A stretch of 64,000 nt of DNA from a virus. This document shows positions 4,560-57,238 of the stretch, piece by piece. The notes under the pieces are model-generated. The model was not told the DNA's origin and did no database searches. It was given only the letters and a program-made list of their open reading frames with translations. The translations under genes were made by a program, and so were the position numbers. Location: IMG/VR virus record IMGVR_UViG_3300045136_000267; one strand, written 5' to 3'. The first letter of the stretch is position 1. The number at the start of each line of letters is the position of its first letter.

Positions 4560-4570
4560 TCCTGGGGCGG

Positions 4571-5014: not shown

Positions 5015-5031
5015 CCGCTCGGTGTCCCACT

Positions 5032-14080: not shown

Positions 14081-15095
14081 ATCAAGTCTCTTAATTGATA
14101 ATGATTATTTGGACGCGCTTTCTGATATAAAAGTTAGCCGACTAGTTAAATACATGGGTCGCTGCTATACTTCTTGGCTAACTATTTCTAAAACAGATAA
14201 TTCGGTAGTAAATGAATCAATAGTAAATGACTATCATGGATTACAAAGGTACCTTTCTTTATTTAATTCTGACTCGACGCTAAAAGATACGATTTTTGTT
14301 CATACTCCTGACAAATTATATTACTTGTTGAGTTTATTGAATATAATGGCTGATAGTAATAAGATAAATAATGCTAAGTATTTAACTAGAGTTTTTGTAA
14401 AAGGTATAGATAATGTTCTATCAGATATTGTTATTCCTGTAGTCTACATTAACCATTTCACAACAAAGGCTCGACTTAAAAAGAACGATAAGCTGGGGTT
14501 AGAAGAAAGTAGACTCAATCAAGTTTTAACATCTTTAACAAATGCTGCTGATGTCAGTCAAAAAATATCTGATACAATGACTAACTTACTTTCATTATTT
14601 AGTAAATATTTACCTTTTACCTCGGATTATACACCAGAACCTTATTTAGTACTAATTAATAAAGTTCTTACATCTGTTACAGTAGCTATCAAATCCTCAT
14701 CAATTCAATCTATTGATGCCGCCGTTCATTTCGATTTAATACCTTCTTATTCTTATCAGATTACTACTTCAGTGCGTAATTCTTCTAATAAAAGCAGGAA
14801 TAAGCTATCCTCTATTGCCCTTACTATGTATGGAGAATCAAAGGATAAGGGTTCACTAAATAGTTTGTATGCTTATTACAAATATCCCGACACCTATTTT
14901 TCTTCTATTGGTTGTAATGATAAAATACTACAGCAAATCTTTTATGCCTTGATTTCTATTATTTATCAAGATATAAAGACTATGATTCAGGCTAGAATAT
15001 CTCAGTTAGAGACTTCTACATCTCATAAAAAGAATATTACTAAGGGGGATCTTTACAGGGAAATTCTATTGTTCAAAACTAAAACCAAAGAATAG
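14073..15095 (+). CDS. hypothetical protein
   Basis: 340 aa, start overlaps the previous stop. Confidence 0.75.
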   Translation: MSKSSLLIDNDYLDALSDIKVSRLVKYMGRCYTSWLTISKTDNSVVNESIVNDYHGLQRYLSLFNSDSTLKDTIFVHTPDKLYYLLSLLNIMADSNKINNAKYLTRVFVKGIDNVLSDIVIPVVYINHFTTKARLKKNDKLGLEESRLNQVLTSLTNAADVSQKISDTMTNLLSLFSKYLPFTSDYTPEPYLVLINKVLTSVTVAIKSSSIQSIDAAVHFDLIPSYSYQITTSVRNSSNKSRNKLSSIALTMYGESKDKGSLNSLYAYYKYPDTYFSSIGCNDKILQQIFYALISIIYQDIKTMIQARISQLETSTSHKKNITKGDLYREILLFKTKTKE

Positions 15096-15977: not shown

Positions 15978-16047
15978 GCATTTTACTCTAAAGAGTAAGA
16001 TGCGGAGGCTAGCTTGATCATTTCAGGCTAGCCTCTTTTTTTTAGCT
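15978..16047 (+). terminator. TTACTCT/AGAGTAA hairpin, then intrinsic terminator with TTTTTTAGC
   Basis: gcattttactct-aa-agagtaagatgc; gaggctagcttga/tcaggctagcctc plus T8. Confidence 0.75.
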
Positions 16048-30690: not shown

Positions 30691-32427
30691 ATGCCTACCC
30701 CTGAGTCTTTAATCACACTAGGTACACCATCTACTTTAGGAACACCTTCTACTACAGGAATAGGTGTACTAGACTCTTTGTATTCTCTCTATAGAGCAGT
30801 AGCACCCTTGGCTAGCGTATTTCTGTCTGGTCAAGGGATGATGCATGTAGCACCAGATCAATCTGTAGGGGATCAAATCCAAAGACTTACTGCTCATAGA
30901 AGATCTTATGAATCTATAAAAAGGCTTCTCCCCAGTGAAATCGATGATATGAAAAATGCCATTAGAGGATTATTGATTTCCTCTGGAGTTGATAGATCAA
31001 CACTTGTACCAGGTTCTCCCGTTGAAGAGCACATAGATAGACTAGCAAGATTATTTGAAAAAGTATATCCGTTACTATTTTTCGCATATCCTAGTGCTAT
31101 TAAAGTTATAAATCCTAGATCTAAATTATTTTTAGCTAATTCATTAAATAAAGTCTTTGAAAGACTCACACCTTTCGCTTCACCAGAAGAATTAGCAGAT
31201 TTAGCAGCATCTGCTGCCACTAAAATTCTTTCAAATCCTAAATATCATCAAGGATTAGATGCTCACGAAATAGCAGAAGTTGCAGAAAAGGCTGTTAAAT
31301 TCGGTTTAGTAAGACTTGGTTCCGGTCAGCAATTTACAGATGATTTAATAGATACTATTGCAATAGTAGCTCCTGTCAGAGAAGAAGCTCTGCGTCGTGG
31401 TGGTCAGTTTTCTATTGAGAATGCTTTATCTCTAGCTAATCAAGTAGCACAGCAATTTCCTTCTGCTTCTCTTAGAGATATTGCTGTAGAAATTAGACGT
31501 AGATTTGAACTAGATGCTGCTGGAGGTGAATATAGATCTTTGACCTTAGATCCACAAGCAGCCTCCTATATTCGCCAATCTGGTGTACCAGTAGAAAAGC
31601 TGGAAAAGCAGCATGAAGAACTCAAGGAAAATGCAGTAAATTCTTACATGGGTTCTGCTATAGGGGCTATTGCTAAGGCTGTAAGAACTGGAATGGTATC
31701 TCCGAATAGTCCTGCTGGTAGGATATATCAAAATATTCAAGCTGGAGGAGTTCCTCCTATGATCTATCCACAGCATGCTTTTGAAGTTCTTGTTTCTTCT
31801 GGAATTGCCCCTGGTGTAGCTTCTATTATGTTATCGTCTCCAGAAGAAAATTCTCATTGGTTAACACCTAATGATGTCCAAGCTATAAGAAGAATGCAGA
31901 TGCAAGTAGATTGGATGCCTAGATTTCAAGCTATAGCAGCCTCTTTCCCTGGTAACGATCCCCAATCCAGAGCAGTGAGAGAAGCGATGCTATCAAAAGT
32001 AGTAGCAGATGGTGGTTATAAAAACATATACCATTTCTTAGCTCTACACGGTCCTGTATTGCAATCTATGCCACAGATCAGAGAGGTAGTAACTAGATCT
32101 GCAGTAAATAAAATGGAGCTAGCTGGTTATGATAATGCTAGCTGGGGTGGACCTGCCCGTGGAATGGCAGCATTACAAGATATCGGCTCCGGTAAGCGAG
32201 AACAGAAATTCTCCGTAGGGGATTTGGCTAGTACTGTATTCCAATTTTACAGACAACCCAAAGGACTAGATATAAACCTAGGATTGGCGACTCCTACTCC
32301 AGCTACGGAAATTAAACCTATAGATGTAATGGAAAGAAGAGATAGTATTTCTATAAGAGAAGATTCAATGCCAGAACCTGTTCTGTCAGATTTTTCTTCT
32401 ATAGGGAGATCCTTGAGTAGCGATTAA
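30691..32427 (+). CDS. Cys-free helical virion-candidate protein
   Basis: 578 aa, Ala-rich, no Cys; directly upstream of the ligase. Confidence 0.7.
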   Translation: MPTPESLITLGTPSTLGTPSTTGIGVLDSLYSLYRAVAPLASVFLSGQGMMHVAPDQSVGDQIQRLTAHRRSYESIKRLLPSEIDDMKNAIRGLLISSGVDRSTLVPGSPVEEHIDRLARLFEKVYPLLFFAYPSAIKVINPRSKLFLANSLNKVFERLTPFASPEELADLAASAATKILSNPKYHQGLDAHEIAEVAEKAVKFGLVRLGSGQQFTDDLIDTIAIVAPVREEALRRGGQFSIENALSLANQVAQQFPSASLRDIAVEIRRRFELDAAGGEYRSLTLDPQAASYIRQSGVPVEKLEKQHEELKENAVNSYMGSAIGAIAKAVRTGMVSPNSPAGRIYQNIQAGGVPPMIYPQHAFEVLVSSGIAPGVASIMLSSPEENSHWLTPNDVQAIRRMQMQVDWMPRFQAIAASFPGNDPQSRAVREAMLSKVVADGGYKNIYHFLALHGPVLQSMPQIREVVTRSAVNKMELAGYDNASWGGPARGMAALQDIGSGKREQKFSVGDLASTVFQFYRQPKGLDINLGLATPTPATEIKPIDVMERRDSISIREDSMPEPVLSDFSSIGRSLSSD

Positions 32428-32429: not shown

Positions 32430-34724
32430 ATGCCTCCATTTGCTGTTGGTATCCCAGATAAAGCAAATTATGGAAATATTAAAGCATTACAAGAAGGAAA
32501 CTTCTACGATCTAGTATTACAAGAACATGACGCTGAACGCGCCGGCAAACATTATGACTTTAGATTAGGAAATTCTGATATTGGTTTATTATCTTGGGCT
32601 ATACCTTCTGCAAAATTACCGGCGCCTGGGGAAAAAGTATTAGCTATCCAGCAACCTCTTCATTCCTACGATTACAGAACCTTTGTAGGAGAAATACCTT
32701 CTGGTTATGGTAAAGGTAACGTATCTCTAGCTTATTCTGGTAATGCTCTCGTTACGGCCATAGATCCTGATAAAAAGAGAATTTACTTCACCATTGCTTC
32801 TGATAGACATCCACGTAAATTCATATTACTAAAACCTGATACAGATAAATACGGTAAGGATGCTTGGCTATTAATTAATATCACTCCAAATAAGCCACTT
32901 CCTTATGCCAAGGTAAAATACCCCGTTATTGACAAAAAGAAGTTACAACAACTATTAGAGAAAGAAGACTATTTAGTTGCAGAACCTAAGATTGACGGTG
33001 CTCTTGGTTTAGTTCAACTAGGCGACAAAGGATTAGAAATCTTTGGGCATAGAATTTCCAGAGTTACAGGATACCCTATCCAATATACGGATAAGATATT
33101 CAAGACTAAACCTACTCTGAACCTTCCATTAAAGTATGCAGGAAGTATTCTGCGGGGTGAAGTTTATGCCGTAAAGACTTTACCAGACGGCTCAGAAGTA
33201 GTTGTAGAACCACAAATACTTAGTGCAGTATTAAATTCTTCTGTAAAGAATGCTTGGGATAGATTAAGAGATCTCGGTCTTAAACTTAAGATAGGATTAT
33301 TTGATATCACAAATTATGGTGGAAATCATTTAGATCCAGAAACAGTTGACTATCCCGCTAGACGTAAGATGTTACTAGAAATCTTACAATATTTACCTAA
33401 AGATACTTTTACAGTAATTCCTTATGTAGATAAGAAAGAGGACATCCTGAAATTACTCCAGGAAATAGAATCTGGGCAACATCCTCTTACAAAAGAGGGA
33501 ATAGTTGTCTACAGAAGGTATGGTTATCCATACAAATATAAAATAAGACCTGAAGAAGATGTATATATAAAAAGAATTATTCCAGGACTAGGGAAATATT
33601 CAGATTCTGCTGGTGCTTTTGAATATAGCTACACCCCTGACGGCCCTGTAGTAGGTACAGTAGGAACTGGATTTTCTGATGAATTCAGAAAATTCATGAT
33701 GGAAAATGTTGAATCTCTAGTAGGAAGACGAGCTAGGGTAACTTATCAAGAGAAGTTTCCTTCTGGCGCCTTGAGAGCCCCTTCTTTCATTGCTTTGCAC
33801 GAAGACTATCCTACAGTTCAAGAAAAGCAGGCAAGTTTTGTTCTACCAGAAGAAGATGAGAAATGGTTATTAGCCATAGACATTCTAAAGAAAGTAGATA
33901 ATTTTATTAAGAAAGGAGATGCTTCTTCTTATCTAGATATCCCTGTTTTAGAATTACCTGTTAAAGTCTATAACAATATTCAGAAGATATTAGGTGGACC
34001 TAATCCATTAACTGCTATGGCTTTAGATGCTCTTATCGGAATGGCATTAGGAGATCTAGCTGGTAGAACTTTGGAATTTGCTTTTCCTAGATTCTTTGCA
34101 GATAGCAAATTCAGAAAAAGGCTTTGGTTAGCTGGTTCTCTATTAGGTGCTTCTTTACCATTTTATATCCACGGAATTCAAAATCTCAGTACACACGGAT
34201 TAAAAGGTCTTTTAACTCCTTCTCCAATCCAAGAGGCACTGACTAAATCTGCTATTGATTATCATGCTAAGAAACTTCGAGTACTTGCTGAAGATTTAAC
34301 AGGAAAGAAAATAATAGATGATATAAATCCTGAATTCATAAAAGAAGCTTCTGTTAAATTAGCTGCTAAATTTGATGTATCTGAATGGGGTAAGACAGTA
34401 TTAGATACTGATTTATCTCCCTGGGAGAAAACTCTGTTAGTAACTGTGCCATTAACAGCTTCTATGTATAGAGGTTCTGATTGGGTAACTCCTGTTGATG
34501 TTGCTAAAGTATCTGCTAATATGGAATTAGGATCATTGTTCGGTAGGCTATTAGGTGATTTAGCCGTACCTATACTAGGTTTACCCAGGGATGTTAAAGA
34601 AGATCTACAAAGAACAGGTCGCCTTACTGGATTATTAAAAGGTTTTACTGGATCTGTTAAGAACGTATTATTAAATACTGGAGATAAGACTTATGACGAA
34701 ATCGGGAAAGCGCTACAAATTTAG
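32430..34724 (+). CDS. LigD-type 3'-phosphoesterase + ATP-dependent DNA ligase + C-terminal K-x-A/hydrophobic extension
   Basis: PE: QEHDAERAGKHYDFRL, SWAIP, LAIQQPLHSYDY, GEIPSGYGKG; ligase: EPKIDG, LRGEVY, LFDI, EGIVV, YKYK, VGTGFSD, LRAPSF. Confidence 0.9.
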   Translation: MPPFAVGIPDKANYGNIKALQEGNFYDLVLQEHDAERAGKHYDFRLGNSDIGLLSWAIPSAKLPAPGEKVLAIQQPLHSYDYRTFVGEIPSGYGKGNVSLAYSGNALVTAIDPDKKRIYFTIASDRHPRKFILLKPDTDKYGKDAWLLINITPNKPLPYAKVKYPVIDKKKLQQLLEKEDYLVAEPKIDGALGLVQLGDKGLEIFGHRISRVTGYPIQYTDKIFKTKPTLNLPLKYAGSILRGEVYAVKTLPDGSEVVVEPQILSAVLNSSVKNAWDRLRDLGLKLKIGLFDITNYGGNHLDPETVDYPARRKMLLEILQYLPKDTFTVIPYVDKKEDILKLLQEIESGQHPLTKEGIVVYRRYGYPYKYKIRPEEDVYIKRIIPGLGKYSDSAGAFEYSYTPDGPVVGTVGTGFSDEFRKFMMENVESLVGRRARVTYQEKFPSGALRAPSFIALHEDYPTVQEKQASFVLPEEDEKWLLAIDILKKVDNFIKKGDASSYLDIPVLELPVKVYNNIQKILGGPNPLTAMALDALIGMALGDLAGRTLEFAFPRFFADSKFRKRLWLAGSLLGASLPFYIHGIQNLSTHGLKGLLTPSPIQEALTKSAIDYHAKKLRVLAEDLTGKKIIDDINPEFIKEASVKLAAKFDVSEWGKTVLDTDLSPWEKTLLVTVPLTASMYRGSDWVTPVDVAKVSANMELGSLFGRLLGDLAVPILGLPRDVKEDLQRTGRLTGLLKGFTGSVKNVLLNTGDKTYDEIGKALQI

Positions 34725-35202
34725 AAATTATGAATTTTGGGCTGCTGATGGTGTTATTGCTATCCTAGATACATCTAAAGCTGGTAGTTCTAGGGAAAGC
34801 GTAGAGAATGCTACTAAATATGTATTTATCAGTGATTTTATCAAAAATGTGATAGCAGCCTACGGTATTCATTCAGCTATTGATCGGCGAGAAGCTAAGA
34901 AGATGTTAGAAGACGCTATGGAATGTGTTAAAGAAGCTAATAAGAAAGGGGATATTTCCAATCCCAAGATTTTACAGCAGAAACTAGAAGATAGTAGACC
35001 AGTTAAACTTTCTATGGCTAATTACGGTCCTAGTAGAATCTTTCCTTCTGCTAGTCCTAGACCTTTGTTTGAAAGTAATTTGCTAGGACCTTCTGGCAAA
35101 GCTTTCATGAGAAAAATATACGAATTAAGAGCATCGAATTCTGCTAACGTAGATGATATTTTTCTAAATGGAATAGATTACAATACGGTAATTACGGAGT
35201 AA
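34693..35202 (+). CDS. hypothetical protein
   Basis: 169 aa in operon. Confidence 0.65.
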   Translation: MTKSGKRYKFRNYEFWAADGVIAILDTSKAGSSRESVENATKYVFISDFIKNVIAAYGIHSAIDRREAKKMLEDAMECVKEANKKGDISNPKILQQKLEDSRPVKLSMANYGPSRIFPSASPRPLFESNLLGPSGKAFMRKIYELRASNSANVDDIFLNGIDYNTVITE

Positions 35203-35205
35203 TAC

Positions 35206-35586
35206 ATGCCTAATCCTACGAATACGCCCACCCCTGTTATAGATCATATTAGTAACTTCCTATATACTGCTATTCCAACGTCAGCTAGCTATGTAGCGAG
35301 CTACTTTCCCATAATTCATAATTTATCTGGTACCGCAATCGGTAATGCATTAGCTAATATCAGGAATACTTTTGGTTTAAGTTTTCCTTCTGTAAAGAGA
35401 AGCAAAATAATAGCCAAGGAAGTAGCACTTGCACAAAACAAGGCGAGTCTAGAAACAGCTAAAAAGCTACTTAGAGAAGAGATAAATAAATCATTAGAGT
35501 TGATAAGAAATAATAAGACCTCTGACGAAGAAGAGCAACAGACTAAATCTGCTAGTTTCTATATTAAACAGAACAAATACTTGTAA
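35206..35586 (+). CDS. virion-candidate protein
   Basis: C-terminal QTKSASF; no Cys. Confidence 0.6.
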   Translation: MPNPTNTPTPVIDHISNFLYTAIPTSASYVASYFPIIHNLSGTAIGNALANIRNTFGLSFPSVKRSKIIAKEVALAQNKASLETAKKLLREEINKSLELIRNNKTSDEEEQQTKSASFYIKQNKYL

Positions 35587-35588
35587 TC

Positions 35589-35984
35589 ATGGATGAAAAC
35601 TTCCTGAATATGCCTTTTGACCCCACTTTAGGGGGCAAGGATATATTACCTCCTTCTTTTGACACCAAATTTAAAGGTGAGCAGGATCCTAGACATGGTG
35701 GTGTATTATCTTGGCCTGGTATAGAAGGAATACCATTTAGAGGTCCAGTAGTTGACTTAAAAGAAGAAGAACGAAATAGACTCGTATTAGTCAATGATTT
35801 TAAATGTCAAACTTTTGACTTGAGTCAGCCAGAAGATAAAGAATATTATAATTGGGTTATGGATAGAATTTGTAATGGTTTATTTAAATGTCTGTATATC
35901 AATAGAATGTGGAATAATGAACATAAAACTATGTTAGTATATGTAGAATGGGTTCAATCCTACTACGAGCACAGGGATAAATAA
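35589..35984 (+). CDS. hypothetical protein
   Basis: 131 aa; Trp/Tyr-rich C-half. Confidence 0.65.
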   Translation: MDENFLNMPFDPTLGGKDILPPSFDTKFKGEQDPRHGGVLSWPGIEGIPFRGPVVDLKEEERNRLVLVNDFKCQTFDLSQPEDKEYYNWVMDRICNGLFKCLYINRMWNNEHKTMLVYVEWVQSYYEHRDK

Positions 35985-36929
35985 ATGTTAGGTGGTCTTA
36001 GTTTTACAGCTAAAAACTTGGTTCCACTAATAATTACAGGTGGACTCTTTACATACGTTCTTAACGACTATCAAAAGCGTAAAAGAAAATCTAGTATAAG
36101 TAAAGAAGTATCTTACGATATTGATGCAGAATATCTTGAAGACTTATACGGAGTCGATATTCCTACTATTGATGAATTTACTAATATAGAAACTAATTCT
36201 TTATCCAAGAAAGGGTCATTTGATTTTTGGCCGTTTAGAAAGCCCAGTCTGTTTGAGAGTCTATTATCTAATGCAGACAGTTATGTTCTTAAAATGATTT
36301 TACCTATAACTATAGTAGGTGGAGCTGCCGCTTTATTCGGTTATTTCAAGAATAAAAAAGATTACGAGAATATTAAAGCAGAATCTAAGGAAGTAGAAAA
36401 AGAATTAGATGAAGTATTAACTAATACTTGGCTTCTAGCTAAAGAACGTCAAAAGTTATCTAAGAAAGCTACTTGGCAAGCAGCATTACTTCCGCTAGCT
36501 ACTATAGCAAGTGTTATCGCATCTCCTTTTATAACTTCTAAGATTATGGATTGGACTGGAGGATACGGTGCTTTATTAAGAATGTATCTCTTAGGTAATA
36601 CTATAGGCAAAGCGCAAGAAACTTATGCTGCTAAGACTAAAGAAGTGGAATCTGATGAAGATATGATTGAAAGCTATGCTCAGATTGCTGGTACTAGACT
36701 AAGTGATGTGCAAGCTCTAAACAAATTCTCTATTAGCTTGATGAAGAAATTGAATAGATTAGCAGCAATGGAATCTTCTCCACAGAAAAATACCAGAAGA
36801 ACTCCTATAGTCAAGAATTTTACTCCCGAGAATAAACTCGAATCTGAGCATAAGCTAGAAGAAACTGCTACTAAAGAACATAAATCTTCTGTCAGCCTTG
36901 AAGAATTATTTAATGAACAGAAAATTTAA
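35985..36929 (+). CDS. Cys-free virion candidate with several hydrophobic segments
   Basis: three hydrophobic segments; SKKGSF and SKKATW. Confidence 0.65.
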   Translation: MLGGLSFTAKNLVPLIITGGLFTYVLNDYQKRKRKSSISKEVSYDIDAEYLEDLYGVDIPTIDEFTNIETNSLSKKGSFDFWPFRKPSLFESLLSNADSYVLKMILPITIVGGAAALFGYFKNKKDYENIKAESKEVEKELDEVLTNTWLLAKERQKLSKKATWQAALLPLATIASVIASPFITSKIMDWTGGYGALLRMYLLGNTIGKAQETYAAKTKEVESDEDMIESYAQIAGTRLSDVQALNKFSISLMKKLNRLAAMESSPQKNTRRTPIVKNFTPENKLESEHKLEETATKEHKSSVSLEELFNEQKI

Positions 36930-36931
36930 TT

Positions 36932-39900
36932 ATGCAGACATTAGCTAGGCCTGTTCAAGAACTTGAAGAATTGAATCCTGATACCTTTAAGTCTGTAGAT
37001 ACATCTCCAACGTTACCTACTATTACTGACATTCCCAAGAATTCTATAGCAGTAGATGACATTCAAGCAATCAGACATAAAATCTTTGATAATGTACTTA
37101 AAACATTATCTTCTGCTCCAGCACACGCTTATGGTAATTATGTTCTTAAATTAGAGAATCTTAAATATGCTGACCCTGATAAGTTTTCTATTCAAGACGA
37201 AAGAGATGCAATTATTAAAGGTAATTCTCTTACTAGAAGACTAGTAGGCGATTATGTTCTTATTGATGCCAAGACTGGGAAAGAGATAGCTAGAAGAAAG
37301 CAGTTAGTAGCTAGAGTACCTTATCTTACTAGTCATGGATCCTTCATTTTCAATGGAAATGCTTACAGTATTGCCAATCAACTACGTTTAAAGCCTGGCG
37401 TCTTCATACGTCTCCGTGGTGATGGTAATGCAGATACTTTCGTAAATACTGTCAAAGGATTGACTCATCATTATACCCTTGACCCTGAAAAGGGTATATT
37501 CTACATGTCCTTTGGTAATGTAAATATTCCACTATTTACCGTTCTAAAAGCACTCAACGTCCCTGATGAAAAGATTCTAAGTGCTTGGGGTCAGAAACTA
37601 TATGCTTCTAACGCCGCTGCCGGAGCTAAAGCTAACATTGCTAAATTATTTAAGAACAGATTATCTCCAGAACAGATAAATCAAGCTCTTCCTAAACTAT
37701 TAGAGAGCATGAAGTTAGATCCAACAGCTACCCAGCTAACTATTGGTATTCCTGCTACCCATGTCACTCCAGACGTAATGCTTGAAGCTACTAAGAAAAT
37801 GCTAAAAGTATGGAAGGGAGAAGCAGAAGCTGATGAGCGTGATGCTTTACACTTCCAGAAAATAGCAGGAGTAGAACATTTAATTCCAGAATATGTATTC
37901 AGAGCACATCAAGGATTACGTAAGTTCATTCCTAGAGCTGTAAGAAAGAATTTCGATTTAAGCGTTATCCCTAGTAATTATTATTGGACAGGCATCTCAG
38001 ATTTACTTCTCGGTAGTGGCTTAGCCGAGATTTTGGAAGAAATTAATCCCACTGAGACCCTCGATAGACTATACAGAGTTACTAAGTTAGGCGCCGGTGG
38101 TATTGAACAAGTAGAAGCCGTACCAGAGGAAGCTAGATCTGTACATCAGACCCACATGGGTTTTATAGATCCAGCAGTAACAGGTAAGTTAAAGCGAGTA
38201 GGCGTAGATTTAAGACTTGCATATCTTACTAGGAGAGATGAGAACGGTAAACTTTATACAGTATTTAAAGATGTAAAGTCCGGTAAATTCGTATGGCGTT
38301 CTCCAGAAGATCTCATTAATGCCGTAGTAGTTTATCCTGGTGAAATGGATAATAAAGATAATTATGTATTGGGATCTAAGAACGGCAGAATTAGATATTT
38401 CAACAGAGAAGAAGTAGATTACGAACTACCTTATGGGGAACAATATTTCAATACAATTACTAATTTTCTACCTGCACAAGGAACAACCTTCCCCCAACGT
38501 ATCATGATGGGTCAGCAAATGCATTTGCAGGCCCTTCCATTAATTAATGCTGAAGAACCTCTAGTTCAGGGGAAGCTACCTAATCAAGATAACTCTTTCC
38601 AAAGAGCTGCATATAAATATTACGGTGTAGTTAAAAGTGATGTAGATGGAATAGTAGAATCTGTAAGTCCTAATAGAATAGTTGTCAGAGACAAAAGATC
38701 TAATAAGAAAACTGTATACGAATTATACAATAATTTCCCTTTCAATAGAAAGACGTTCATTCATAACACCCCAGTAGTTAAAACAGGGGATGAAGTATAC
38801 AAGAACCAATTATTAGCGACTTCTAATTTCTCCGATAAGAATGGCAATCCCGCTTTCGGATTAAATGCTTACATAGCATTTTTACCTTATCGTGGTTACA
38901 ACTATGAAGATGCTTACGTGGTATCTGAATCTTTTGCTAAAAGATTAAACTCTGAACATATGTATCAAGAAACTCTGGATATAGCTCCAAACATAATCAC
39001 TGGAAAAGATGCTTATAAAGCGGCGTTTCCAGGTAAGTATTCAGAGGAATTTTACAATAACTATGATGAAAATGGATTCTTAAAACCAGGTAGAAAAGCT
39101 ATTAAAGGACAACCATTAATTTTAGCTGTAAAATCTGCAGATCCGGGTAGAATAGGAGCAAAAAAGAAGATACTTTCTGATGCATCTATTATTTGGGATC
39201 ATGAAAATCCTGGTGTAGTAATAGATACTCATAAAGGAAGAGACAATCTTTATATCAACATTAAGTCTAATTCTTTAGCAATTGAAGGAGACAAGTTAAC
39301 CGGTAGATTTGGTGACAAGGGTGTAATCGCTAGGATCATTCCTGATAGTGAAATGCCTAGAGATAGTCTAGGCAGACCCTTTGATTTACTAGTTAATCCT
39401 CTAGGACTAGCTACTAGAGGTAATATGGGGCAAATCTATGAGGCTGTTCTAGGTAAAATTGCCGCTAAAAATAAGAAACCTGTATTTGTTCCAGCCTTCA
39501 TGAGCGACTATTACGTTTTTGCTGATAATATGTTGAAGGCCAATAGGGTTTCCCCCACAGATACTGTTTATGACCCAAAATTTGGCACATATATTCCTAA
39601 TGTTTTAACTGGATATAAATATGTGATGAAATTGCATCACATGGCAGAATCTAAGTTGCAAGAAAGAGAGACTGCTGAATATACAGCAGAAGACATGCCT
39701 GCTAGAGGAGGTAAGACAGGGGCAAAATATATAGGTTTCTTGGAATTGATGGGTATCTTAGGTCACAATGCTTTCAATGTTATTAGAGATGCCAAGTTTG
39801 TTAGAGGACAAAGAAATGACAGATTTTGGCTAGATTTCATGCGTGGTGCTACTCCCACAGTCAATACATCAACATTGGTTTATGATAAATTTGTAAACCT

Positions 39901-41335
39901 ATTAAAAGCTGCAGGTATAAATATAGAAAGTAACAACGACACTTTGAATCTTTTCGCCCTTACAAACTCTGATATCGCTAACCTGACTGCAGATAGGGTA
40001 ATTAGAAATCCAAATACTGTTAAAGTATTACGTGATGATGTTAAGCCAATAACAGGCGGTTTATTTGATCCGACTATTACTGGAGGTCTAGATGGTAGGC
40101 ATTGGAGCTATTTTGAATTATCTGAACCATTTCCAAATCCAGTAATGGAAGATGTAATTCGTACATTATTGGATTTAACAGAGAAAGATTACATTGACAT
40201 TCTAATAGGAAAGAAAACTCTTGAAGGTTCAAATAAATTAGGGCCAGAAGCCCTTAAGGAAGTCTTATCAGAATTTAATGTTGATAAAGAACTAGATACA
40301 GCTATTCGCAATTACAAAGTAGCTCCTGCTAGCAAAAAAAGTGCTTTGATAAAGAAGATTAGATATCTACGGGCTATAAAGCAAACTAATCAAAAGCCAG
40401 AAGAATGGTTCTGGACGAGAATGCCTATTATTCCACCAATCTTTCGTCCAGTCTCCTTAACTAATAAAGTAATAACGGTAGCTGATGTTAATGCTTTGTA
40501 TCAAGATTTGTATGAAGCTAATGAAATATTAAATTCTCAGAAGAAATTCATGGAAAATCCATCAGAAGCTAGACTTGCTGTCTACAACGGCATGAAGGCT
40601 GTAGCAGGAATAGGTGATCCTATTCAAGTTAAACATAAGCAGCAGGGGTTAAGGGGTTTATTACAGCAGATAGTAGGTACCAGGTCTAAAACAAGCTATG
40701 TAATGCGTAAGCTTATTGGTATAACTACTGACTTGGTAGGTAGAGCTGTAATCATTCCAAATCCTGCCTTGGATATAGATCATGTAGGTATTCCCATAGA
40801 AATGGCCTGGACTTTATTCAGGCCAGTAATAATAAGAAATCTGACTAAACGCGGACTTTCTCTAGTAGATGCAATAAAAGCATATAATGATAAATCTAAA
40901 TATGCAGTAGATGCGTTACTAGAAGAGATAAATAACAGGGTAGTTATAGTAAATAGAGCGCCAGTACTGCATAGATATGGTGTAATGGCATTTAAGCCAG
41001 TTCTTACAAAGAATAAAGTAGTAGAATTCAATCCTCAAATAACGTCAGCTTTTGGAGCAGACTTTGATGGTGATGCTGTTCAAGTACATCTTCCCATACT
41101 TGATGAAGCTCAAAAAGAAGCTAAGATGAAAATGCTACCATCAAAGAATTTATTCTCTTCTGCTAATTTTGGACTGTTATATCCTCCGATTAGAGAGTAT
41201 GCTTTAGGTTTATGGCTGGCAACAGCTTACGAAGATAAAACTAAAAAACCTGTAAGGTTTAAATCTATTGGCGACCTACTTAAAGCATATAATAGAGGTG
41301 AAATTACAATAAATACGCCAGTAGAAATTGGTTAG
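36932..41335 (+). CDS. phage multisubunit RNA polymerase: beta fused to N-terminal half of beta'
   Basis: beta: GSFIFNG..QLRLKPGVF, GYNYEDA, GDKLTGRFGDKGVI, KLHHMAESK; beta': GGLFDP, PIIPPIFRP, NRAPVLHR, catalytic GADFDGD (41054-41074). Confidence 0.95.
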   Translation: MQTLARPVQELEELNPDTFKSVDTSPTLPTITDIPKNSIAVDDIQAIRHKIFDNVLKTLSSAPAHAYGNYVLKLENLKYADPDKFSIQDERDAIIKGNSLTRRLVGDYVLIDAKTGKEIARRKQLVARVPYLTSHGSFIFNGNAYSIANQLRLKPGVFIRLRGDGNADTFVNTVKGLTHHYTLDPEKGIFYMSFGNVNIPLFTVLKALNVPDEKILSAWGQKLYASNAAAGAKANIAKLFKNRLSPEQINQALPKLLESMKLDPTATQLTIGIPATHVTPDVMLEATKKMLKVWKGEAEADERDALHFQKIAGVEHLIPEYVFRAHQGLRKFIPRAVRKNFDLSVIPSNYYWTGISDLLLGSGLAEILEEINPTETLDRLYRVTKLGAGGIEQVEAVPEEARSVHQTHMGFIDPAVTGKLKRVGVDLRLAYLTRRDENGKLYTVFKDVKSGKFVWRSPEDLINAVVVYPGEMDNKDNYVLGSKNGRIRYFNREEVDYELPYGEQYFNTITNFLPAQGTTFPQRIMMGQQMHLQALPLINAEEPLVQGKLPNQDNSFQRAAYKYYGVVKSDVDGIVESVSPNRIVVRDKRSNKKTVYELYNNFPFNRKTFIHNTPVVKTGDEVYKNQLLATSNFSDKNGNPAFGLNAYIAFLPYRGYNYEDAYVVSESFAKRLNSEHMYQETLDIAPNIITGKDAYKAAFPGKYSEEFYNNYDENGFLKPGRKAIKGQPLILAVKSADPGRIGAKKKILSDASIIWDHENPGVVIDTHKGRDNLYINIKSNSLAIEGDKLTGRFGDKGVIARIIPDSEMPRDSLGRPFDLLVNPLGLATRGNMGQIYEAVLGKIAAKNKKPVFVPAFMSDYYVFADNMLKANRVSPTDTVYDPKFGTYIPNVLTGYKYVMKLHHMAESKLQERETAEYTAEDMPARGGKTGAKYIGFLELMGILGHNAFNVIRDAKFVRGQRNDRFWLDFMRGATPTVNTSTLVYDKFVNLLKAAGINIESNNDTLNLFALTNSDIANLTADRVIRNPNTVKVLRDDVKPITGGLFDPTITGGLDGRHWSYFELSEPFPNPVMEDVIRTLLDLTEKDYIDILIGKKTLEGSNKLGPEALKEVLSEFNVDKELDTAIRNYKVAPASKKSALIKKIRYLRAIKQTNQKPEEWFWTRMPIIPPIFRPVSLTNKVITVADVNALYQDLYEANEILNSQKKFMENPSEARLAVYNGMKAVAGIGDPIQVKHKQQGLRGLLQQIVGTRSKTSYVMRKLIGITTDLVGRAVIIPNPALDIDHVGIPIEMAWTLFRPVIIRNLTKRGLSLVDAIKAYNDKSKYAVDALLEEINNRVVIVNRAPVLHRYGVMAFKPVLTKNKVVEFNPQITSAFGADFDGDAVQVHLPILDEAQKEAKMKMLPSKNLFSSANFGLLYPPIREYALGLWLATAYEDKTKKPVRFKSIGDLLKAYNRGEITINTPVEIG

Positions 41336-41358
41336 TCTTTTTTATTAGGAGAGTTTGA

Positions 41359-41952
41359 ATGAAAGGTTCTCATTTATTTCAATTAGATCCTAATGCTTTC
41401 ATGAAGGCTTTAGCTAAATTAGCTTCCGAAAAGAACGCCTTTGTTCCTCCTGGTGGCGGTGCTCCTCCTGGTGCTCCTCCTGGAGGTATGCCTATGGATC
41501 CTGCCATGATGGGTATGGCAGCTCCTCCCGGTGGTGGTGCTACTCCAATGGATCCTGCCATGATGGGTATGGCTCCTCCGCCTGGAGGTATGCCTATGGA
41601 TCCATCAATGATGGGTGGCGGGGCTCCTCCTGGTGGAGGCGCTCCTCCTCCGATGGGCGGTGGGCTTCCTCCGGAATTGATGCAGTTATTAGCTTCTCCG
41701 CCCGGCGGTGCTCCTGAGTCCACTGATAATTCTGGCGCTCCTGGCTCTGAAGTCGGTGAGGAGCAAGGTACCGGTACTTCTACCAGTACTCTAATGGAAA
41801 TGAAACCCGAAGAGTTCAAAACCTTAGTGATTGATGCTGTAGAAAAAGGTTTCGCTAATTCTGCAGATTCAATGTTAAGGGTACTAGAAGATATTAGAGA
41901 TGCTTTAACTAATAAGGCTGGTACTTCTAGAGGCGAGAACGAGAACCTCTAA
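41359..41952 (+). CDS. Gly/Pro/Met low-complexity protein between the RNAP genes
   Basis: PMDP(A/S)MMG repeats; N-terminal AKLASEKNAF. Confidence 0.75.
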   Translation: MKGSHLFQLDPNAFMKALAKLASEKNAFVPPGGGAPPGAPPGGMPMDPAMMGMAAPPGGGATPMDPAMMGMAPPPGGMPMDPSMMGGGAPPGGGAPPPMGGGLPPELMQLLASPPGGAPESTDNSGAPGSEVGEEQGTGTSTSTLMEMKPEEFKTLVIDAVEKGFANSADSMLRVLEDIRDALTNKAGTSRGENENL

Positions 41953-41959
41953 TTAATTA

Positions 41960-43810
41960 ATGACTACAGCAGGTGCTGTTTTAATAAATGCAATATTACC
42001 AGAGGATATAAAAGTATCTGGTACTTTAGACGTAAAAGAGATAAGGGCTCTTTTGTCTAAAGTAGCTCAGAAGTATCCAGATAAATTTCCAGAGATTTCT
42101 TTGAAGTTAGGGAACTTGGGTGCCGATTTTGCATATCGGCACCCAAAGTCTTCTTTTTCTTGGGAGGAATTAGCTCCTACATACGAATTAGATAATCTAA
42201 GAAAAGATTTATATTCTAAAGTTAGAGAAATAATTTCCGATTCCACTACAGACTGGGATAAAAAGTCTAGTAAAATAATAGATATAGTATCTAAATATGA
42301 TGATCTCTTCTTGGAAAAAACCAAAGAGATATTGAAACAGAGAGGTGGGGCTCTTTACGGTCAGTCTTCTTCTGGTACTAGAGGTAAACCTGTAGATATT
42401 AGAAGACTTCTAACGGGTGATATTCTCTACGTAGATCATAAGAATCGACCTATTCCTGTTCCAGTATTACGCGGTTATTCAATGGGTCTAAGACCAAGCG
42501 AATACTGGCTAGCAACTTTCGGCGCCAGAAAAGGATTCGTGACTACGAATCTTGGAACAGCAGATGCTGGGTACCTAAGCAAACAATTAACTAATGCTGC
42601 TCATAGACTTATAGTCACTGCTGTTGATTATAAAGGTAAGGATCCACTACCTATTGGATTACCAGTAGATACTTCAGATCCTGATAATGCTGGTAGCTTT
42701 CTTGCCGCAGATGTAGGCGGCTATAAACGAAATACTTTATTAACTCCAGAGATATTAGCTGATTTGAAAAATAAAGGTTTTAACCAGATTCTTGTCAGAA
42801 GCGTTTTAACCAAAAGACTACCAGGTGGTGGAGTAACTGCTAAAGATGTTGGATTAATGGAAAACGGTAGAATGTTAAGCCCAGGGGATATGATTGGAAT
42901 AATTGCTTCTCAATCTCTAGGTGAACCTGTAACACAAATGGTTATTGGGGCTAAACATTCTGGTGGTACTTCTAAGACTAAGATAGACATTGGTTCTTTG
43001 ATTCTAGCTTTGCAAGTACCCAAACAATATAGGGGAGCTGTACATACCGACAATGCAGGTACTGTTAAAAACATTACGGATGCTTCTGCTGGTGGTAAGA
43101 TTGTTACCATTGATAATGAACAGTATTACGTACCTCCGCAAGAAGAAGTAAATGTAAAAATTGGTGACTTTGTAGAAGCTGGTGATCCTATTAGTTCTGG
43201 AATTCCAAATATTTCTAAGTTAGTACAGCATAAAGGCATTGGAGAAGGTAGAAGGAAATATGTAGAATTATTAAGAGATATTTATAAGCAAACAGGTTTT
43301 AATATAATAAGAAGAAACTTTGAAATATTAGTTTCTGGATTAATAGATCATGTAAAATTAACTCAACCCATAGGGAATTACATTCCTGGAGATGTGGTAT
43401 CTTACACGTGGTTAGAATCTAAGTGGACACCACGGGAAGGTAGTAAATGGATATCAGTAGATAAAGCTGCAGGAAAATATCTAGAATTGCCAGTTTTACA
43501 TTATACTATCGGAACAGCTATTGCACCATCTATGGTGAAAATATTAAAACAATTTAATATTGACAATGTTTTAGTACATGACGATCCTCCGCCATTTGAA
43601 CCTTACATGGTTCCGGCTGCTAAAGTTATTGATTATGATCCAGATTGGTTAGTACGATTTTTAGGTGGTACCTTTGGACAGAAGAGAAGCTTAATAAAAG
43701 CTGTTAGTGAGGGACATAAGAGTGAGATTTTCTCTACTTCTTATGTACCTCCTTTCGTTACCGGGAAAGCATTTGCCACGGAGTGGCCTAAAAAGATTCT
43801 GCAAAGTTGA
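41960..43810 (+). CDS. phage RNA polymerase beta' C-terminal half
   Basis: SGTRG, bridge helix GARKGFVTTNLGTADAGYL, trigger loop SQSLGEPVTQM..KHSGG, RNFEILV. Confidence 0.93.
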   Translation: MTTAGAVLINAILPEDIKVSGTLDVKEIRALLSKVAQKYPDKFPEISLKLGNLGADFAYRHPKSSFSWEELAPTYELDNLRKDLYSKVREIISDSTTDWDKKSSKIIDIVSKYDDLFLEKTKEILKQRGGALYGQSSSGTRGKPVDIRRLLTGDILYVDHKNRPIPVPVLRGYSMGLRPSEYWLATFGARKGFVTTNLGTADAGYLSKQLTNAAHRLIVTAVDYKGKDPLPIGLPVDTSDPDNAGSFLAADVGGYKRNTLLTPEILADLKNKGFNQILVRSVLTKRLPGGGVTAKDVGLMENGRMLSPGDMIGIIASQSLGEPVTQMVIGAKHSGGTSKTKIDIGSLILALQVPKQYRGAVHTDNAGTVKNITDASAGGKIVTIDNEQYYVPPQEEVNVKIGDFVEAGDPISSGIPNISKLVQHKGIGEGRRKYVELLRDIYKQTGFNIIRRNFEILVSGLIDHVKLTQPIGNYIPGDVVSYTWLESKWTPREGSKWISVDKAAGKYLELPVLHYTIGTAIAPSMVKILKQFNIDNVLVHDDPPPFEPYMVPAAKVIDYDPDWLVRFLGGTFGQKRSLIKAVSEGHKSEIFSTSYVPPFVTGKAFATEWPKKILQS

Positions 43811-43830: not shown

Positions 43831-46167
43831 ATGACTTCTAGCTTAAGTACTAGTTTTTCTGTCTTAAGAAAATTACCTGAAAAGAGGTTTCTGGGTAATT
43901 ATAAATTTGCAGCCGCAGAGGGGGATGAAGGTAATTATGAAGCTGCTTTGAGCAACATTGCTCATGCTTATATACAAGACGTAGCCCCAGATCTACTTCC
44001 TTATGAATTGGGATTTCAGTTAGTTGAAAAGAACAGAGACGCTAATAGAGCCCTTGGTGTATTTGGTTTTAAGATAAACAACTTAGTTTGTTATATTCCT
44101 ATTTTCTTTATTGATGGAGACATTTTTGGCCTAGATCTTCTCTTTGTTCATAATTTTAAGCGCTGGATTCCTCTTGAGAGAGAATTTGTAAAGAAATTAA
44201 TTAATTCTTCTAAAGCAGCTGTAGGTAGTCCAGTAGATGCTCTATCTAAATCGTTATTATCTGAATTACCTAATTTAATGCAATTTAAGCCTTATACGCT
44301 CAAGTGGGCTATGGACCTACCTGAATGGCTAAGACCTTTCTCTGTAGAACTAGTAAATAACAAAAGAGCACCTAAAGTAGAGAGAAAAGAGAGATTATTA
44401 GATTTACTTTCTAAATCCGCTTCTGCCGCAAGGAAATTTAGTGAATTTTTACTTGAGCATCCTATTTACATTAAATCTTTTGACAAAGCCTATGGTTTGA
44501 ATCGTATTAAAGAAGCTATTAAAACAGCGGCTGATACTGACAAAAAACCAGTAATTCCTTCATTGGAGGAATCTGGTAAACCTGCTGATGTAGAGATTTA
44601 TACTAATATCCATTCAGACGCTATTCATAAACTTACTGAGACAGAATTGGCCACCCTTAGAAGACAAGGATATTATGTAAAGGATAAGAGAAATAAAACT
44701 ACTATTATAAAACCGTATGAATTTAACAATAAGAAAGCACAGACGGTAGATAAAGCAGGTTTTTATCATCTATTACTTGCCGATCTATCTAGAGTGTGTG
44801 CTTTTGTAGTACCTATCGTAGCTGAATTTGATGAAGATGTTTATTCGTCTTCTAATGAGAACGAAAGAAAGCGTCGTGATAAGCATATTAAGCATTCTTA
44901 TTTAGTAGTTCCTATTTATAGAATGGCAGAAGATGGTGAAATCTTAAAGACTTATTCTGGTGACCTTGGCTTTGTCGCTTATTCTGATAGCTTAGTGGCT
45001 ATTAATACTCCAAAAGACTATGATAAACATTCTATTAATGACTTTAAGTCATTAAGAAATATCGAAGGTAATAAAGATTATTACAGCAGATATATAGTAT
45101 TTACAGCAAATAATGCTACTCCTCCTATTAGGCAGTTAAAGAAATTAGATAAACAACATAGAGGTAGGACACTATTCTCTGTAGACTTAGACTGTGGTTG
45201 TGTATCTGAGGGACCAATCGAGCCATATCCTACCCATCTTGTATTAGATCCTGTTCTAACTAATGAAATTAAGTTCCATAAGAGATTTGATAATAATGCT
45301 AAATGGAATGAAAAGTCTATAAGATTACATGTTCCTGTCAATGCTAAATATGTGAAACTAATAAACGATTATGTAGACTCTGATTCTGAAGAGGCAGAAA
45401 TAAATAGTATTAGGCATGGTCTTGTTAGTTCTAATGACATTTTACGTACTCTTCTTAAGAGTGCAGATGGTGAATTAAAGGCATTTGAAATATCTAACGA
45501 TGAGGTAATCATTAATAACAAACCCTTGAATAAGAAAGCTGCCTTTCAACATCTAATTCTAGACTATGGCTTGAGTGAAGCTGACGCTAAAGAAGTATTG
45601 AAGAAAGTTGCATATAAGAAGGAAGCTAGATACGTCTATAAAAAAGCAGATGATATGAATTTTCCAAATGCTCCTCCGCCTCCAGGAGGACCTGCATTGG
45701 AAAAGATGCAGCCTTATCTAGGTTCGTTTGGACAAGCTCCTGCAACTAGTCCTCTTTACTCTATTCTAGTAAATCAAATTCCAGGCCTCCCATTGCCTGA
45801 TAATCCTTATTCTGATCTCAAAGGTACTATTGATTTTGATAAGATTGTCAATCAAGCGATTCAATCCGGGGAAAAAGAAATTCTGGACACTAGCGTATTT
45901 ACTGGTTTGATCCATGCTACTGATGAGAGAGAATTAATAGATAAATATTTTGATGACATAGTAGATGGTCTAAATGCTATTGGACAACTATTATTTAATA
46001 TTTACATGCATAAAGACAAAATTGAAGAAGTATATGGTAAAGAATCTTATAAAGAGATAGAAAATCTAGTTAGAAATAATTTCAGAAATTTAGGAAAGAT
46101 GGTAGTAAGGTTATTCAATAGACCTAATACTTCTAACTTCAAACCATTAACTTCTTTAGAGGTGTAA
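43831..46167 (+). CDS. large K-x-A-rich prohead core candidate
   Basis: YKFAA, LKWAM, SKSAS, IKTAA, LKSAD, NKKAA, KKVAYKKEA, YKKAD. Confidence 0.65.
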   Translation: MTSSLSTSFSVLRKLPEKRFLGNYKFAAAEGDEGNYEAALSNIAHAYIQDVAPDLLPYELGFQLVEKNRDANRALGVFGFKINNLVCYIPIFFIDGDIFGLDLLFVHNFKRWIPLEREFVKKLINSSKAAVGSPVDALSKSLLSELPNLMQFKPYTLKWAMDLPEWLRPFSVELVNNKRAPKVERKERLLDLLSKSASAARKFSEFLLEHPIYIKSFDKAYGLNRIKEAIKTAADTDKKPVIPSLEESGKPADVEIYTNIHSDAIHKLTETELATLRRQGYYVKDKRNKTTIIKPYEFNNKKAQTVDKAGFYHLLLADLSRVCAFVVPIVAEFDEDVYSSSNENERKRRDKHIKHSYLVVPIYRMAEDGEILKTYSGDLGFVAYSDSLVAINTPKDYDKHSINDFKSLRNIEGNKDYYSRYIVFTANNATPPIRQLKKLDKQHRGRTLFSVDLDCGCVSEGPIEPYPTHLVLDPVLTNEIKFHKRFDNNAKWNEKSIRLHVPVNAKYVKLINDYVDSDSEEAEINSIRHGLVSSNDILRTLLKSADGELKAFEISNDEVIINNKPLNKKAAFQHLILDYGLSEADAKEVLKKVAYKKEARYVYKKADDMNFPNAPPPPGGPALEKMQPYLGSFGQAPATSPLYSILVNQIPGLPLPDNPYSDLKGTIDFDKIVNQAIQSGEKEILDTSVFTGLIHATDERELIDKYFDDIVDGLNAIGQLLFNIYMHKDKIEEVYGKESYKEIENLVRNNFRNLGKMVVRLFNRPNTSNFKPLTSLEV

Positions 46168-55408: not shown

Positions 55409-56335
55409 ATGGCCATAAAGACTACGTTACGTAATGAAGCATTTCTTAATGAAGTGCAATCTGGTTCGCCTCAGCTAGTTAAGCAGGCCCAGGAGAGAAT
55501 GACCTCTATGGTCCGCTTAATGGTGCGTGAAGGTGCTGTAGATAGACAGGTACTCGTTCCAGAGTACATCACGTATAGCGATCTTGATCGTCAGGTTGAT
55601 ACTGATGTTATGGTCAAGATCGTGGATGTGGAACCGAATAGCCCTGCTGCTTTCAGCGTAGGCTTTGGTTCTGCTTCTCCGATGTTCTGGATCGCGGCTA
55701 GACGTGTTCGTGCTACGTTTAACCGCATCAAGACTAATGAAGCTCTGTATGATATTGAACTTCTTGGTACCTGGGAGATGGATATCCAGGAAGTCATCGC
55801 TAATAACATGATTCGCGATATCTTGGCTAGAGAAGACGGTGGCTTCTTTAATGCTGTAAATGACTTCGTTGGTGCTGCTGACGCTGTTAATAGCGTAACC
55901 CAGTCCGTTACTTATGCCACTATTTATGGTGGTTATACTAGAGAAACTCTTCAGGAAGCGGCTGCCGTTATGTTGAAATCGGCATATCGTCTGCAGCCTG
56001 TAACTGTAGTAATTAATACAGTTACTGCTAGAAGATTGATGTCACTTGGTCGTGAAGAGTTGGGTGACGATTCTGCTGGTAGAATCTTCCGTGAAGGGTT
56101 CTCGCAGTGGAAGTTCGATAACCTCAACTGGGTAGTCACTAGCAAGCGTCATATCGTGGCTGACGATGAAATGTATTTCTTTGCCGACCCGCGTGCGGTA
56201 GGTAAGTTCTACATTCTGAATGATACCACTACCCATCTGACCGTTGACGGTCATGACCTGAGATTCTATTCGTCTCAGACTTACTCGCAAGTTGTTGTGA
56301 ACGTTGCCGGTTTAGCCAAAGTACGCTTCGCGTAA
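55409..56335 (+). CDS. major capsid protein (HK97 fold)
   Basis: 308 aa; DILAREDGGFF spine-helix-like segment, position after protease/scaffold, biased codons, N-terminal LVKQAQ. Confidence 0.8.
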   Translation: MAIKTTLRNEAFLNEVQSGSPQLVKQAQERMTSMVRLMVREGAVDRQVLVPEYITYSDLDRQVDTDVMVKIVDVEPNSPAAFSVGFGSASPMFWIAARRVRATFNRIKTNEALYDIELLGTWEMDIQEVIANNMIRDILAREDGGFFNAVNDFVGAADAVNSVTQSVTYATIYGGYTRETLQEAAAVMLKSAYRLQPVTVVINTVTARRLMSLGREELGDDSAGRIFREGFSQWKFDNLNWVVTSKRHIVADDEMYFFADPRAVGKFYILNDTTTHLTVDGHDLRFYSSQTYSQVVVNVAGLAKVRFA

Positions 56336-57134: not shown

Positions 57135-57190
57135 TTTTAATACTTTACTTTATTTAATCTTTGTAGACTCATATTTTTATTGTATACTTT

Positions 57191-57224
57191 GGGGAGTGAT
57201 TTAAGGATCACTCCCCTCTTTTTA
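57191..57224 (+). terminator. intrinsic terminator of the capsid operon
   Basis: ggggagtgat/atcactcccc stem followed by tcttttt. Confidence 0.8.
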
Positions 57225-57238
57225 TTTAGGGATTCGTT

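Follow-up and report, generated by a model that had tools for sequence, protein, structure and literature searches.

Cysteine-free multisubunit RNA polymerase chains and a LigD-like ligase in the head block of a large divergent phage, candidates for delivery with the genome

RNA polymerases (RNAPs) carried in virions are known, as is the suppression of cysteine (Cys) in the ejected proteins of N4-like phages, for which the literature also cites Kazmierczak 2002. The virion RNAP of coliphage N4, gp50, and other ejection proteins of the Schitoviridae are without Cys, a property attributed to their passage through the periplasm (PMC11445570, PMC2784036). The gp71/gp50 homologs of DEV and N4 contain 0.00075% Cys, compared with 0.865% in proteomes (PMC11445570). 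The subject of this work is a comparable absence of Cys in a bacterial-type RNAP and a DNA ligase encoded in IMG/VR record IMGVR_UViG_3300045136_000267. The window, that is, the whole 64-kb stretch analysed, has about 36% GC and is a piece of a large, very divergent tailed phage. The explanation that we favour, with a probability of roughly 0.6, is that the RNAP core and the LigD-type ligase of this head block have been purged of Cys by selection and are packaged, to leave through the tail along with the DNA.

Three + strand genes carry the observation: a ligase of 764 amino acids (32430..34724), an RNAP chain of 1467 amino acids (36932..41335) and a second RNAP chain of 616 amino acids (41960..43810). 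Combined, they have 0 Cys in 2847 residues. The mean Cys content of the window is 0.72-0.75%, and the probability of finding no Cys is 2.4e-5 for the 1467-residue chain and 1.1e-9 for the three proteins jointly. An earlier sequence-only reading of this DNA had reported these three proteins to be Cys-free together with 12 further open reading frames (ORFs 8045, 8340, 8778, 16417, 17433, 19692, 26858, 30691, 35985, 49432, 50122 and 50612), and every count was reproduced. Cys-free ORFs beyond that list are 20828, 21878, 29259, 35206, 41359, 53120, 54361, 55409 (the major capsid protein) and 57239. The count per ORF against background that the same reading had proposed gives, for the window, 12 Cys-free proteins among the 22 of at least 300 residues where 0.93 are expected; none of 20,000 multinomial simulations gave more than 6. 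Its other counts also held. ORF 7382(-) has a single Cys at residue 12, preceding K17-R-A, and ORF 28097 a single Cys at residue 17, preceding K21-E-A. Cys is present in the portal protein (9), in ORFs 43831 (4) and 47506 (2), and in the genes at 10-15 kb (6, 13, 2 and 10, the richest having 13 Cys in 584 residues). Normal Cys is retained by replication-type neighbours and by some tail or portal proteins. A lipobox was considered for the N-terminal Cys of 7382(-) and 28097 and rejected, since neither protein has a signal peptide or lipobox.

The depletion is specific to Cys and acts at the level of the protein, because the three enzymes have normal amounts of Met, His and Trp and the Cys codons TGT/TGC are abundant in their genes in the other frames (0 in frame 1, 33 in frame 2 and 171 in frame 3, hence 204 out of frame). 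Chance, composition or an annotation artefact (low Cys in the genome, a wrong frame or a wrong genetic code) can be set aside almost entirely. The window mean and proteins with up to 13 Cys in 584 residues speak against low genomic Cys, the simulations all fell far short of the number of Cys-free ORFs in the window, and the ORFs in question are long, with end-to-end Pfam domains and hundreds of full-length homologs. Such an explanation is already refuted.

The polymerase is identified by its domains. In Pfam, the 1467-residue chain matches Rpb2_6 (E 9e-52), Rpb2_3, Rpb1_1 and Rpb1_2 (E 2e-25), and the catalytic Mg-binding loop DFDGD is found at residue 1377; by these matches it is a β subunit fused to the N-terminal half of β' (β::β'N). 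The 616-residue chain matches Rpb1_5 (E 5.5e-29) and is, on the same grounds, the C-terminal half of β' (β'C). With β-type (Rpb2 domain 6) and β'-type domains both present, the two chains are, as judged from domain content, the complete catalytic core of a multisubunit double-psi β-barrel RNAP. Both β' Cys4 zinc sites of cellular RNAPs are missing, neither chain having any Cys, and the Rpb1_1 match covers profile positions 168-253 only, as would be the case if the Zn-binding part at the N-terminus had been lost. The missing zinc sites are a departure from the cellular enzymes and not from the fold family.

The absence of Cys in the RNAP extends to a large number of relatives. Among the best 120 of 829 matches to the large chain (41-58% identity, mostly on metagenomic contigs of 100-230 kb), 102 have zero Cys and 11 have one or two. 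The remaining 7, with 10-17 Cys each, are long forms having an intein/homing-endonuclease insert, and 83 of their 87 Cys sit in that insert. Confinement of Cys to a segment that is spliced out points to selection on the mature spliced polymerase rather than on gene or genome. In 6 of these 7, Ser or Thr serves as the +1 splice nucleophile, compared with a +1 Cys in the intein of the portal protein of this phage. For β'C, an exhaustive profile-free search gave 150 representatives (38-53% identity) with 54 Cys in 92,037 aligned residues, or 0.059%, and 116 of them have none. Local backgrounds are 0.45-0.9%, so that near-zero Cys is conserved against a normal proteome level. As read from these alignments, selection has conserved the absence of Cys in the RNAP, which is no accident of one genome. 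Homolog comparisons, including those of the ligase given below, show that, over a very large clade of uncultured phages, purifying selection strips Cys from the mature RNAP chains and from the catalytic core of the ligase. The homologs of the RNAP and of the ligase core do not have the normal Cys content that the sequence-only reading had named as evidence against it.

A different account of this conservation is that RNAP and ligase are unpackaged intracellular enzymes, which lost Cys along with the two β' zinc sites and were kept low in Cys for some other reason, such as a need to withstand host stress of an oxidative or thiol-directed kind, or by lineage habit. Cellular β and β' are already Cys-poor outside their Zn sites, and the truncated Rpb1_1 match is what loss of the N-terminal Zn-part would give. 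The loss of 8 Zn ligands cannot explain zero Cys in about 2100 residues in more than 100 lineages at 40-58% identity, and it leaves the Ser/Thr residues at the +1 position of the intein junctions without explanation. This account is quite improbable, and further evidence on it comes from the ligase and from gene position.

The 764-residue protein is composed of a 3'-phosphoesterase (PE) domain at about residues 28-148, a nucleotidyltransferase at about 171-373, an OB domain at about 385-458 and a helical domain at 461-764. The PE domain matches LigD_N (Pfam, E 2.3e-13) with an intact catalytic His/Asp/Arg motif, and alignment to the PE domain of Pseudomonas aeruginosa LigD (3n9b) shows HDA..HYDFRL..SWA.P..H..Y to be conserved. 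Ligase motif I is present as KIDG with Lys187, and the protein matches PHROG_114, ATP-dependent DNA ligase (E 2e-23); the OB domain matches the Chlorella virus ligase in the PDB, while the Pfam scores for the ligase and OB domains fall under the curated cut-offs. No AEP polymerase domain or Ku partner was found by Pfam in the ligase or its neighbours. The C-terminal 300 residues are helical, with hydrophobic segments resembling Gly zippers, and are limited to close relatives; a conserved K-Q-A-S-F motif joins them to the ligase core. An AlphaFold model of this C-terminal domain (predicted local distance difference test, pLDDT, 57) was too poor for a fold search.

Among 120 ligase homologs, 88 have zero Cys and the overall content is 0.11%. 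Short forms having only the PE and ligase (PE-LIG) core contain 0.028%, and the PE-LIG core family-wide about 0.05%. Across homologs this core is combined with SNF2, NUDIX, GNAT, UDG and SET modules and with RNAP β'N. Fusions to helicase, NUDIX and GNAT domains are typical of intracellular counter-defence enzymes and on that count favour the account without packaging.

The combination with β'N ties the ligase to the polymerase. In one contig (L012, 4280-6796) a single protein, P0182, is a natural fusion of the PE-LIG core with β'N (32% identity over 414 aligned columns, E 9e-63, NADFDGD retained), and β is not fused to β'N there. The junction carries the same K-Q-A-S motif, and a homolog of the 197-residue ORF that separates the two RNAP genes of the window comes next. 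In other contigs the ligase is accompanied by further large Cys-free proteins. A 135-kb contig (L013) has the order portal ... 582-residue homolog of ORF 30691 ... ligase, without an adjacent RNAP, and its 961-, 582- and 750-residue proteins are all Cys-free against a background of 0.9%. In an unrelated phage contig of 196 kb (L014, 7038-11380), a Cys-free SNF2 helicase of 986 residues is followed by a Cys-free short PE-LIG, and the ligase tail domain occurs at 13981-14745 as a separate Cys-free protein of 254 residues, where the local background is 0.82%. From these arrangements a functional link between ligase and RNAP appears real, and large Cys-free enzymes form a recurring block; the block is no proof of packaging. 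Co-packaging of the ligase in the virion is possible, at somewhat less than even odds.

The place of the RNAP genes bears more directly on packaging. Salmonella phage Arash is the closest relative in culture, and phmmer searches against its ORFs supplied the landmarks of the head module. At the upstream edge of the module is the portal protein (889 residues, 23231..25900, + strand; Arash gp204 portal, E 2.7e-56), at its downstream end the major capsid protein (308 residues, 0 Cys, 55409..56335, + strand; Arash gp226, E 9.7e-20), so that the RNAP/ligase span falls inside the head-morphogenesis block. The large RNAP chain is the ortholog of Arash gp206 (31% identity over 95% of its length), and β'C matches Arash gp216 (E 1e-53). 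In this phage, as in Arash and Vibrio phage D69, the RNAP follows the portal and precedes the capsid gene, and three closer metagenomic relatives preserve the local gene order. Genes from about 16.4 kb to the end of the window are nearly all on the + strand with very few gaps. Directly after β'C comes a 778-residue protein with 4 Cys (43831..46167, + strand), a homolog of the Arash virion protein gp218 (E 2.3e-9), and Cys-containing virion proteins thus directly flank the RNAP. The polymerase gene is in this way placed among tightly packed, co-oriented late and structural genes. No intergenic terminator was found from 25.9 to 45.9 kb, and the scan that covered this interval gave no enrichment of sigma-70-like sites. 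Clear hairpin-plus-T-run sequences occur at about 16000-16045 and 57180-57225, where they flank a 41-kb block running from genes upstream of the portal to just beyond the capsid gene. Expression of an RNAP with the head genes is most sensible if the enzyme is packaged for the next infection; an RNAP that stays in the cell would have little reason to be encoded, and apparently co-transcribed, between portal and capsid genes.

Virion proteomics of Arash agrees with this placement. Gp206 (β::β'N) is the most detected protein in mass spectrometry of the Arash virion, with 3516 spectra, and Gp216 (β'C) has 1210 spectra where the capsid protein has 1333; the proteins detected also include a sigma factor and a helicase (PMC10585845). 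RNAP chains equalling the capsid protein in spectral counts do not fit unpackaged enzymes. The six top virion proteins of Arash contain 7 Cys in 6522 residues; its terminase, RNR, primase, methyltransferase and UDG contain 1.2-2.4% Cys. Arash has a single RNAP locus, so that a packaged enzyme would be the only polymerase of the phage. By analogy with Arash and from gene position, the RNAP is probably a virion enzyme. The sequence-only reading had proposed that the phage packages and injects the RNAP, the ligase and membrane proteins; for the RNAP the proposal is supported by the location between portal and capsid genes and by the Arash spectra, and for the membrane proteins the basis is weak. 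Within the span only ORF 35985, of 314 residues, has clear hydrophobic segments (100-118 and 166-184).

The most likely reason for the absence of Cys is that the RNAP chains and ligase would be synthesised late, placed in the capsid and passed down the tail together with the DNA. Storage under oxidising conditions, passage in an unfolded state and refolding would all be impeded by thiols, disulfides and Zn sites. Once injected, the RNAP would perform the first transcription of the incoming genome. Less firmly, the ligase would travel and work with the RNAP, healing and sealing ends on the incoming genome or on RNA. A wider proposal is that the whole clade injects a start-up kit, consisting of a zinc-free and thiol-free two-chain RNAP and a coupled, sometimes fused, heal-and-seal ligase, and that Cys suppression would then mark tail-translocated enzymes, SNF2 helicases included, in any phage genome. 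This extension is tentative and, on balance, unlikely.

A number of findings weigh against delivery as the reason for Cys loss. Phage phiKZ injects its virion RNAP into a diderm host, and this enzyme contains 16 Cys in 2614 residues (0.61%; the non-virion RNAP set has 33 in 2850), so that packaging does not need Cys loss. The β'C chains of Arash and D69 have 4 Cys each. Cys is missing from the capsid proteins of this phage, Arash and D69 and from a likely scaffold, and is present in the portal and in the virion-protein homologs 43831, 51723 and 59019. For the ligase, the closest orthologs have 1-4 Cys, mostly past residue 500 in the C-terminal domain, and no cultured phage was found to carry this PE-ligase. 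A conserved K-x-A leader or junction, of the kind described below for head proteins, was considered for the RNAP chains and rejected: the conserved columns lie inside catalytic domains and K34 of β'C is not conserved. The proteomic support for packaging is that from Arash, at only the 31% identity given above, and the Arash dataset is permissive, with 116 of 272 proteins detected, RNR and NAMPT among them (PMC10585845). Detection alone is therefore loose, which also suits the intracellular account, and the weight was given to abundance. Finally, the only cultured relatives infect Salmonella and Vibrio, and a diderm host, hence any periplasm, is for this phage a supposition. The phage is probably a myovirus with a contractile tail, by analogy with Arash, which is one, and from a VgrG-like, Cys-containing ORF at 60915. 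A contractile tail means less exposure to the periplasm, and this probable status weakens the periplasm argument.

Injection consequently does not require the absence of Cys, and cargo is not alone in showing it. The sequence-only reading had itself cautioned that the trait is not exclusive, since the capsid protein and scaffold lack Cys, and for the capsid protein this is borne out here (ORF 55409) and in Arash. Its conclusion that a lack of Cys identifies the ejected set in a diderm host generalises too far, given the phiKZ RNAP, the β'C chains of Arash and D69 and the Cys-free capsid protein. Its starting point, the Cys-free N4 virion RNAP and the ascription of this to periplasmic passage, agrees with the literature cited at the outset. 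Dense storage in an oxidising particle, and unfolded passage with zinc-free refolding, are at least as plausible as drivers as the periplasm.

The same observations suggest a constraint of another kind, in which proteins that form the capsid or fill its interior avoid Cys in general because the particle is dense, long-lived, extracellular and oxidising, and neither ejection nor the periplasm plays a part. The RNAP, and perhaps the ligase, would then be virion components, and their lack of Cys would be silent on injection or a diderm host. The Cys-free capsid proteins of all three phages fit such a constraint, as do several small Cys-free ORFs of the head module that have K-x-A leaders at the N-terminus, the low Cys of the abundant Arash virion proteins as a group and the lesser periplasm exposure of a myovirus-like phage. 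It is contradicted by the 2-10 Cys of the portal, 43831, 51723, 58159, 59019 and 60915, so that residence in the virion is insufficient for Cys loss, and by the head proteins of phiKZ, which carry Cys. A constraint of this kind is unlikely, if less so than enzymes that are never packaged, and selection for packaging and tail delivery is preferred to both.

The K-x-A motif is widespread in the window. It occurs 143 times in the ORFs, compared with 95 ± 9 in shuffles, and lies within residues 9-45 in 25 of 59 ORFs where 10 ± 2.7 are expected. Its usual form is a hydrophobic residue followed by K-x-A at residues of about 15-40, e.g., in 55409, 8340, 8778, 17433, 19692 and 53120. In the capsid protein it has the same place here (K25-Q-A) and in Arash gp226 (K27-E-A), and it is also found in Arash gp97 and gp220-gp223. 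K-x-A is a credible candidate, as far as its distribution can indicate, for a processing/maturation or targeting signal of the whole clade. Its conservation at the junction between ligase core and tail would be a second, independent tie of the ligase to the head. The motif is also invariant in the family of the 197-residue Cys-free protein (41359..41952, + strand), where K-x-A-F-x-P is followed by low-complexity sequence rich in Pro, Gly, Ala and Met with (G/A)PP(G)MDP-like repeats. The gene is always adjacent to β'N, with homologs in two contigs (L002 and L004) besides the one that follows the ligase::β'N fusion, and its product may be a disordered RNAP-associated or head-targeted factor.

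Low-complexity sequence was also seen in distant β'C homologs (P0244-P0392). Most of these have C-terminal tails of 400-1100 residues, which the β'C of the window does not have; the tails sampled are rich in P/S/T/N/Q/G, almost Cys-free, mostly unrelated to one another and without a Pfam domain. They were compared with the ligase tail and with the 778-residue neighbour and are neither. Within the β'C coding sequence of the window, at 42116-42146 on the + strand, there is a hairpin whose stem is a perfect 12 bp, 7 of them GC pairs, and whose loop is 7 nt long; a weak T-run comes after it.

Other genes of the region can be placed only in part. Searches of PHROG and Pfam with about 40 neighbouring ORFs gave no matches, almost nothing being recognised outside the RNAP/ligase span, and a scan of IMG/VR with the RNAP query also gave none. 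Upstream of the ligase is a Cys-free all-α protein of 578 residues (30691..32427, + strand), homologs of which lie directly upstream of the ligase in three contigs (L002, L003 and L013). Its AlphaFold core has a pLDDT of 70-89, and a fold search of PDB and viral structures gave no significant match; matches of tape-measure type were discarded as evidence (E at or above 1e-3, template modelling scores of 0.1-0.2). Between ligase and RNAP are four small + strand ORFs (34693..36929) of 169 (1 Cys), 126 (0), 131 (3) and 314 (0) residues, and the 3 Cys of the 131-residue protein are conserved in relatives. Further Arash homologs were placed by phmmer at 51723-53123 (gp222), 58159 (gp233) and 59019 (gp234). 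The portal protein contains an intein at about residues 41-302 (Pfam Intein_splicing and Hint; junctions W|CHHPN and VAN|CEY), with Cys303 as the +1 residue. Cys41 and Cys50 are inside the intein, and the idea that portal Cys is confined to it was rejected, the mature portal retaining 7. Two CxxC pairs (382/385 and 409/412) suggest a zinc-ribbon insert in the mature portal.

Two observations concern non-coding sequence. The first of the two hairpins, at about 16000-16045, is followed by TTTTTTAGCT, and this 10-mer also occurs at 2562, 4208, 4622 and 5096. The interval 4013-7381 comprises 3.4 kb without an ORF of at least 100 residues and without a tRNA.

If the delivery of these Cys-free enzymes is correct, conserved suppression of Cys in the mature protein would be a cheap, sequence-only finder of tail-delivered proteins, which are otherwise knowable only by virion proteomics and hence out of reach for uncultured phages. 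The rule would extend from single-subunit enzymes of the N4 type to multisubunit RNAPs of the bacterial type, and a multisubunit RNAP could function without zinc sites and thiols. A LigD-like repair ligase, with SNF2 helicases alongside, would be a new kind of injected cargo and would bear on the survival of incoming phage genomes against host nucleases. The phiKZ counter-example limits the rule, and where it fails (by tail type, host envelope or vesicle formation) would itself be informative.

Compared with described systems, the RNAP most closely resembles Arash Gp206/Gp216 and the enzymes of Vibrio phages D69, D148 and D181, which have the same re-cut β::β'N and β'C chains, likewise encoded between portal and capsid gene. 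The large chains of Arash and D69 are nearly Cys-free as well, with 1 Cys in 1525 residues and 2 in 1527, respectively. The Arash type differs in its identity of about 31%, its Cys-containing β'C, the lack of a PE-ligase and the single small ORF between portal and RNAP. The Cys trait is not remarked on in the Arash paper (PMC10585845), and reviews of jumbo-phage RNAPs do not mention cysteine. The virion RNAP of phiKZ (gp80, gp149, gp178 and gp180) is likewise multisubunit, packaged in the head and injected, and provides early transcription independent of the host; unlike the enzyme described here, it consists of 4-5 polypeptides and contains Cys, and phiKZ has a second, non-virion RNAP set where Arash has one locus.

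The ligase shares with bacterial LigD the PE catalytic motif and an ATP-ligase motif I with OB fold. In the many alternative C-terminal modules that its PE-LIG core carries on phage contigs it is similar to the phage polyvalent proteins, for which injection has been predicted (Iyer, Burroughs and Aravind 2017, PMC5512222). It differs in lacking the LigD polymerase (AEP) and a nearby Ku and in having, in close relatives only, the helical tail resembling a Gly zipper.

With the N4-like systems (N4 gp50-52, DEV gp71-73) the likeness is in large proteins, which in the N4-like phages are enzymes and ejection proteins synthesised late, packaged and brought in with the DNA for early transcription, and in near-total suppression of Cys across a family. 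N4 gp50 is a single polypeptide of 3500 residues with a T7-like single-subunit core, from a podovirus, whereas the present RNAP is a two-chain enzyme of bacterial type whose ejection is proposed from sequence. Pfam and PHROG assign the chains to the Rpb1/Rpb2 families only, and no homology to N4 gp50, gp51 or gp52 was found. The likeness to the N4 system is, on this comparison, one of behaviour and not of descent, and what the present phage clade adds to it is a family-wide loss of thiols in a multisubunit RNAP, the control provided by inteins and the coupling of ligase and RNAP.

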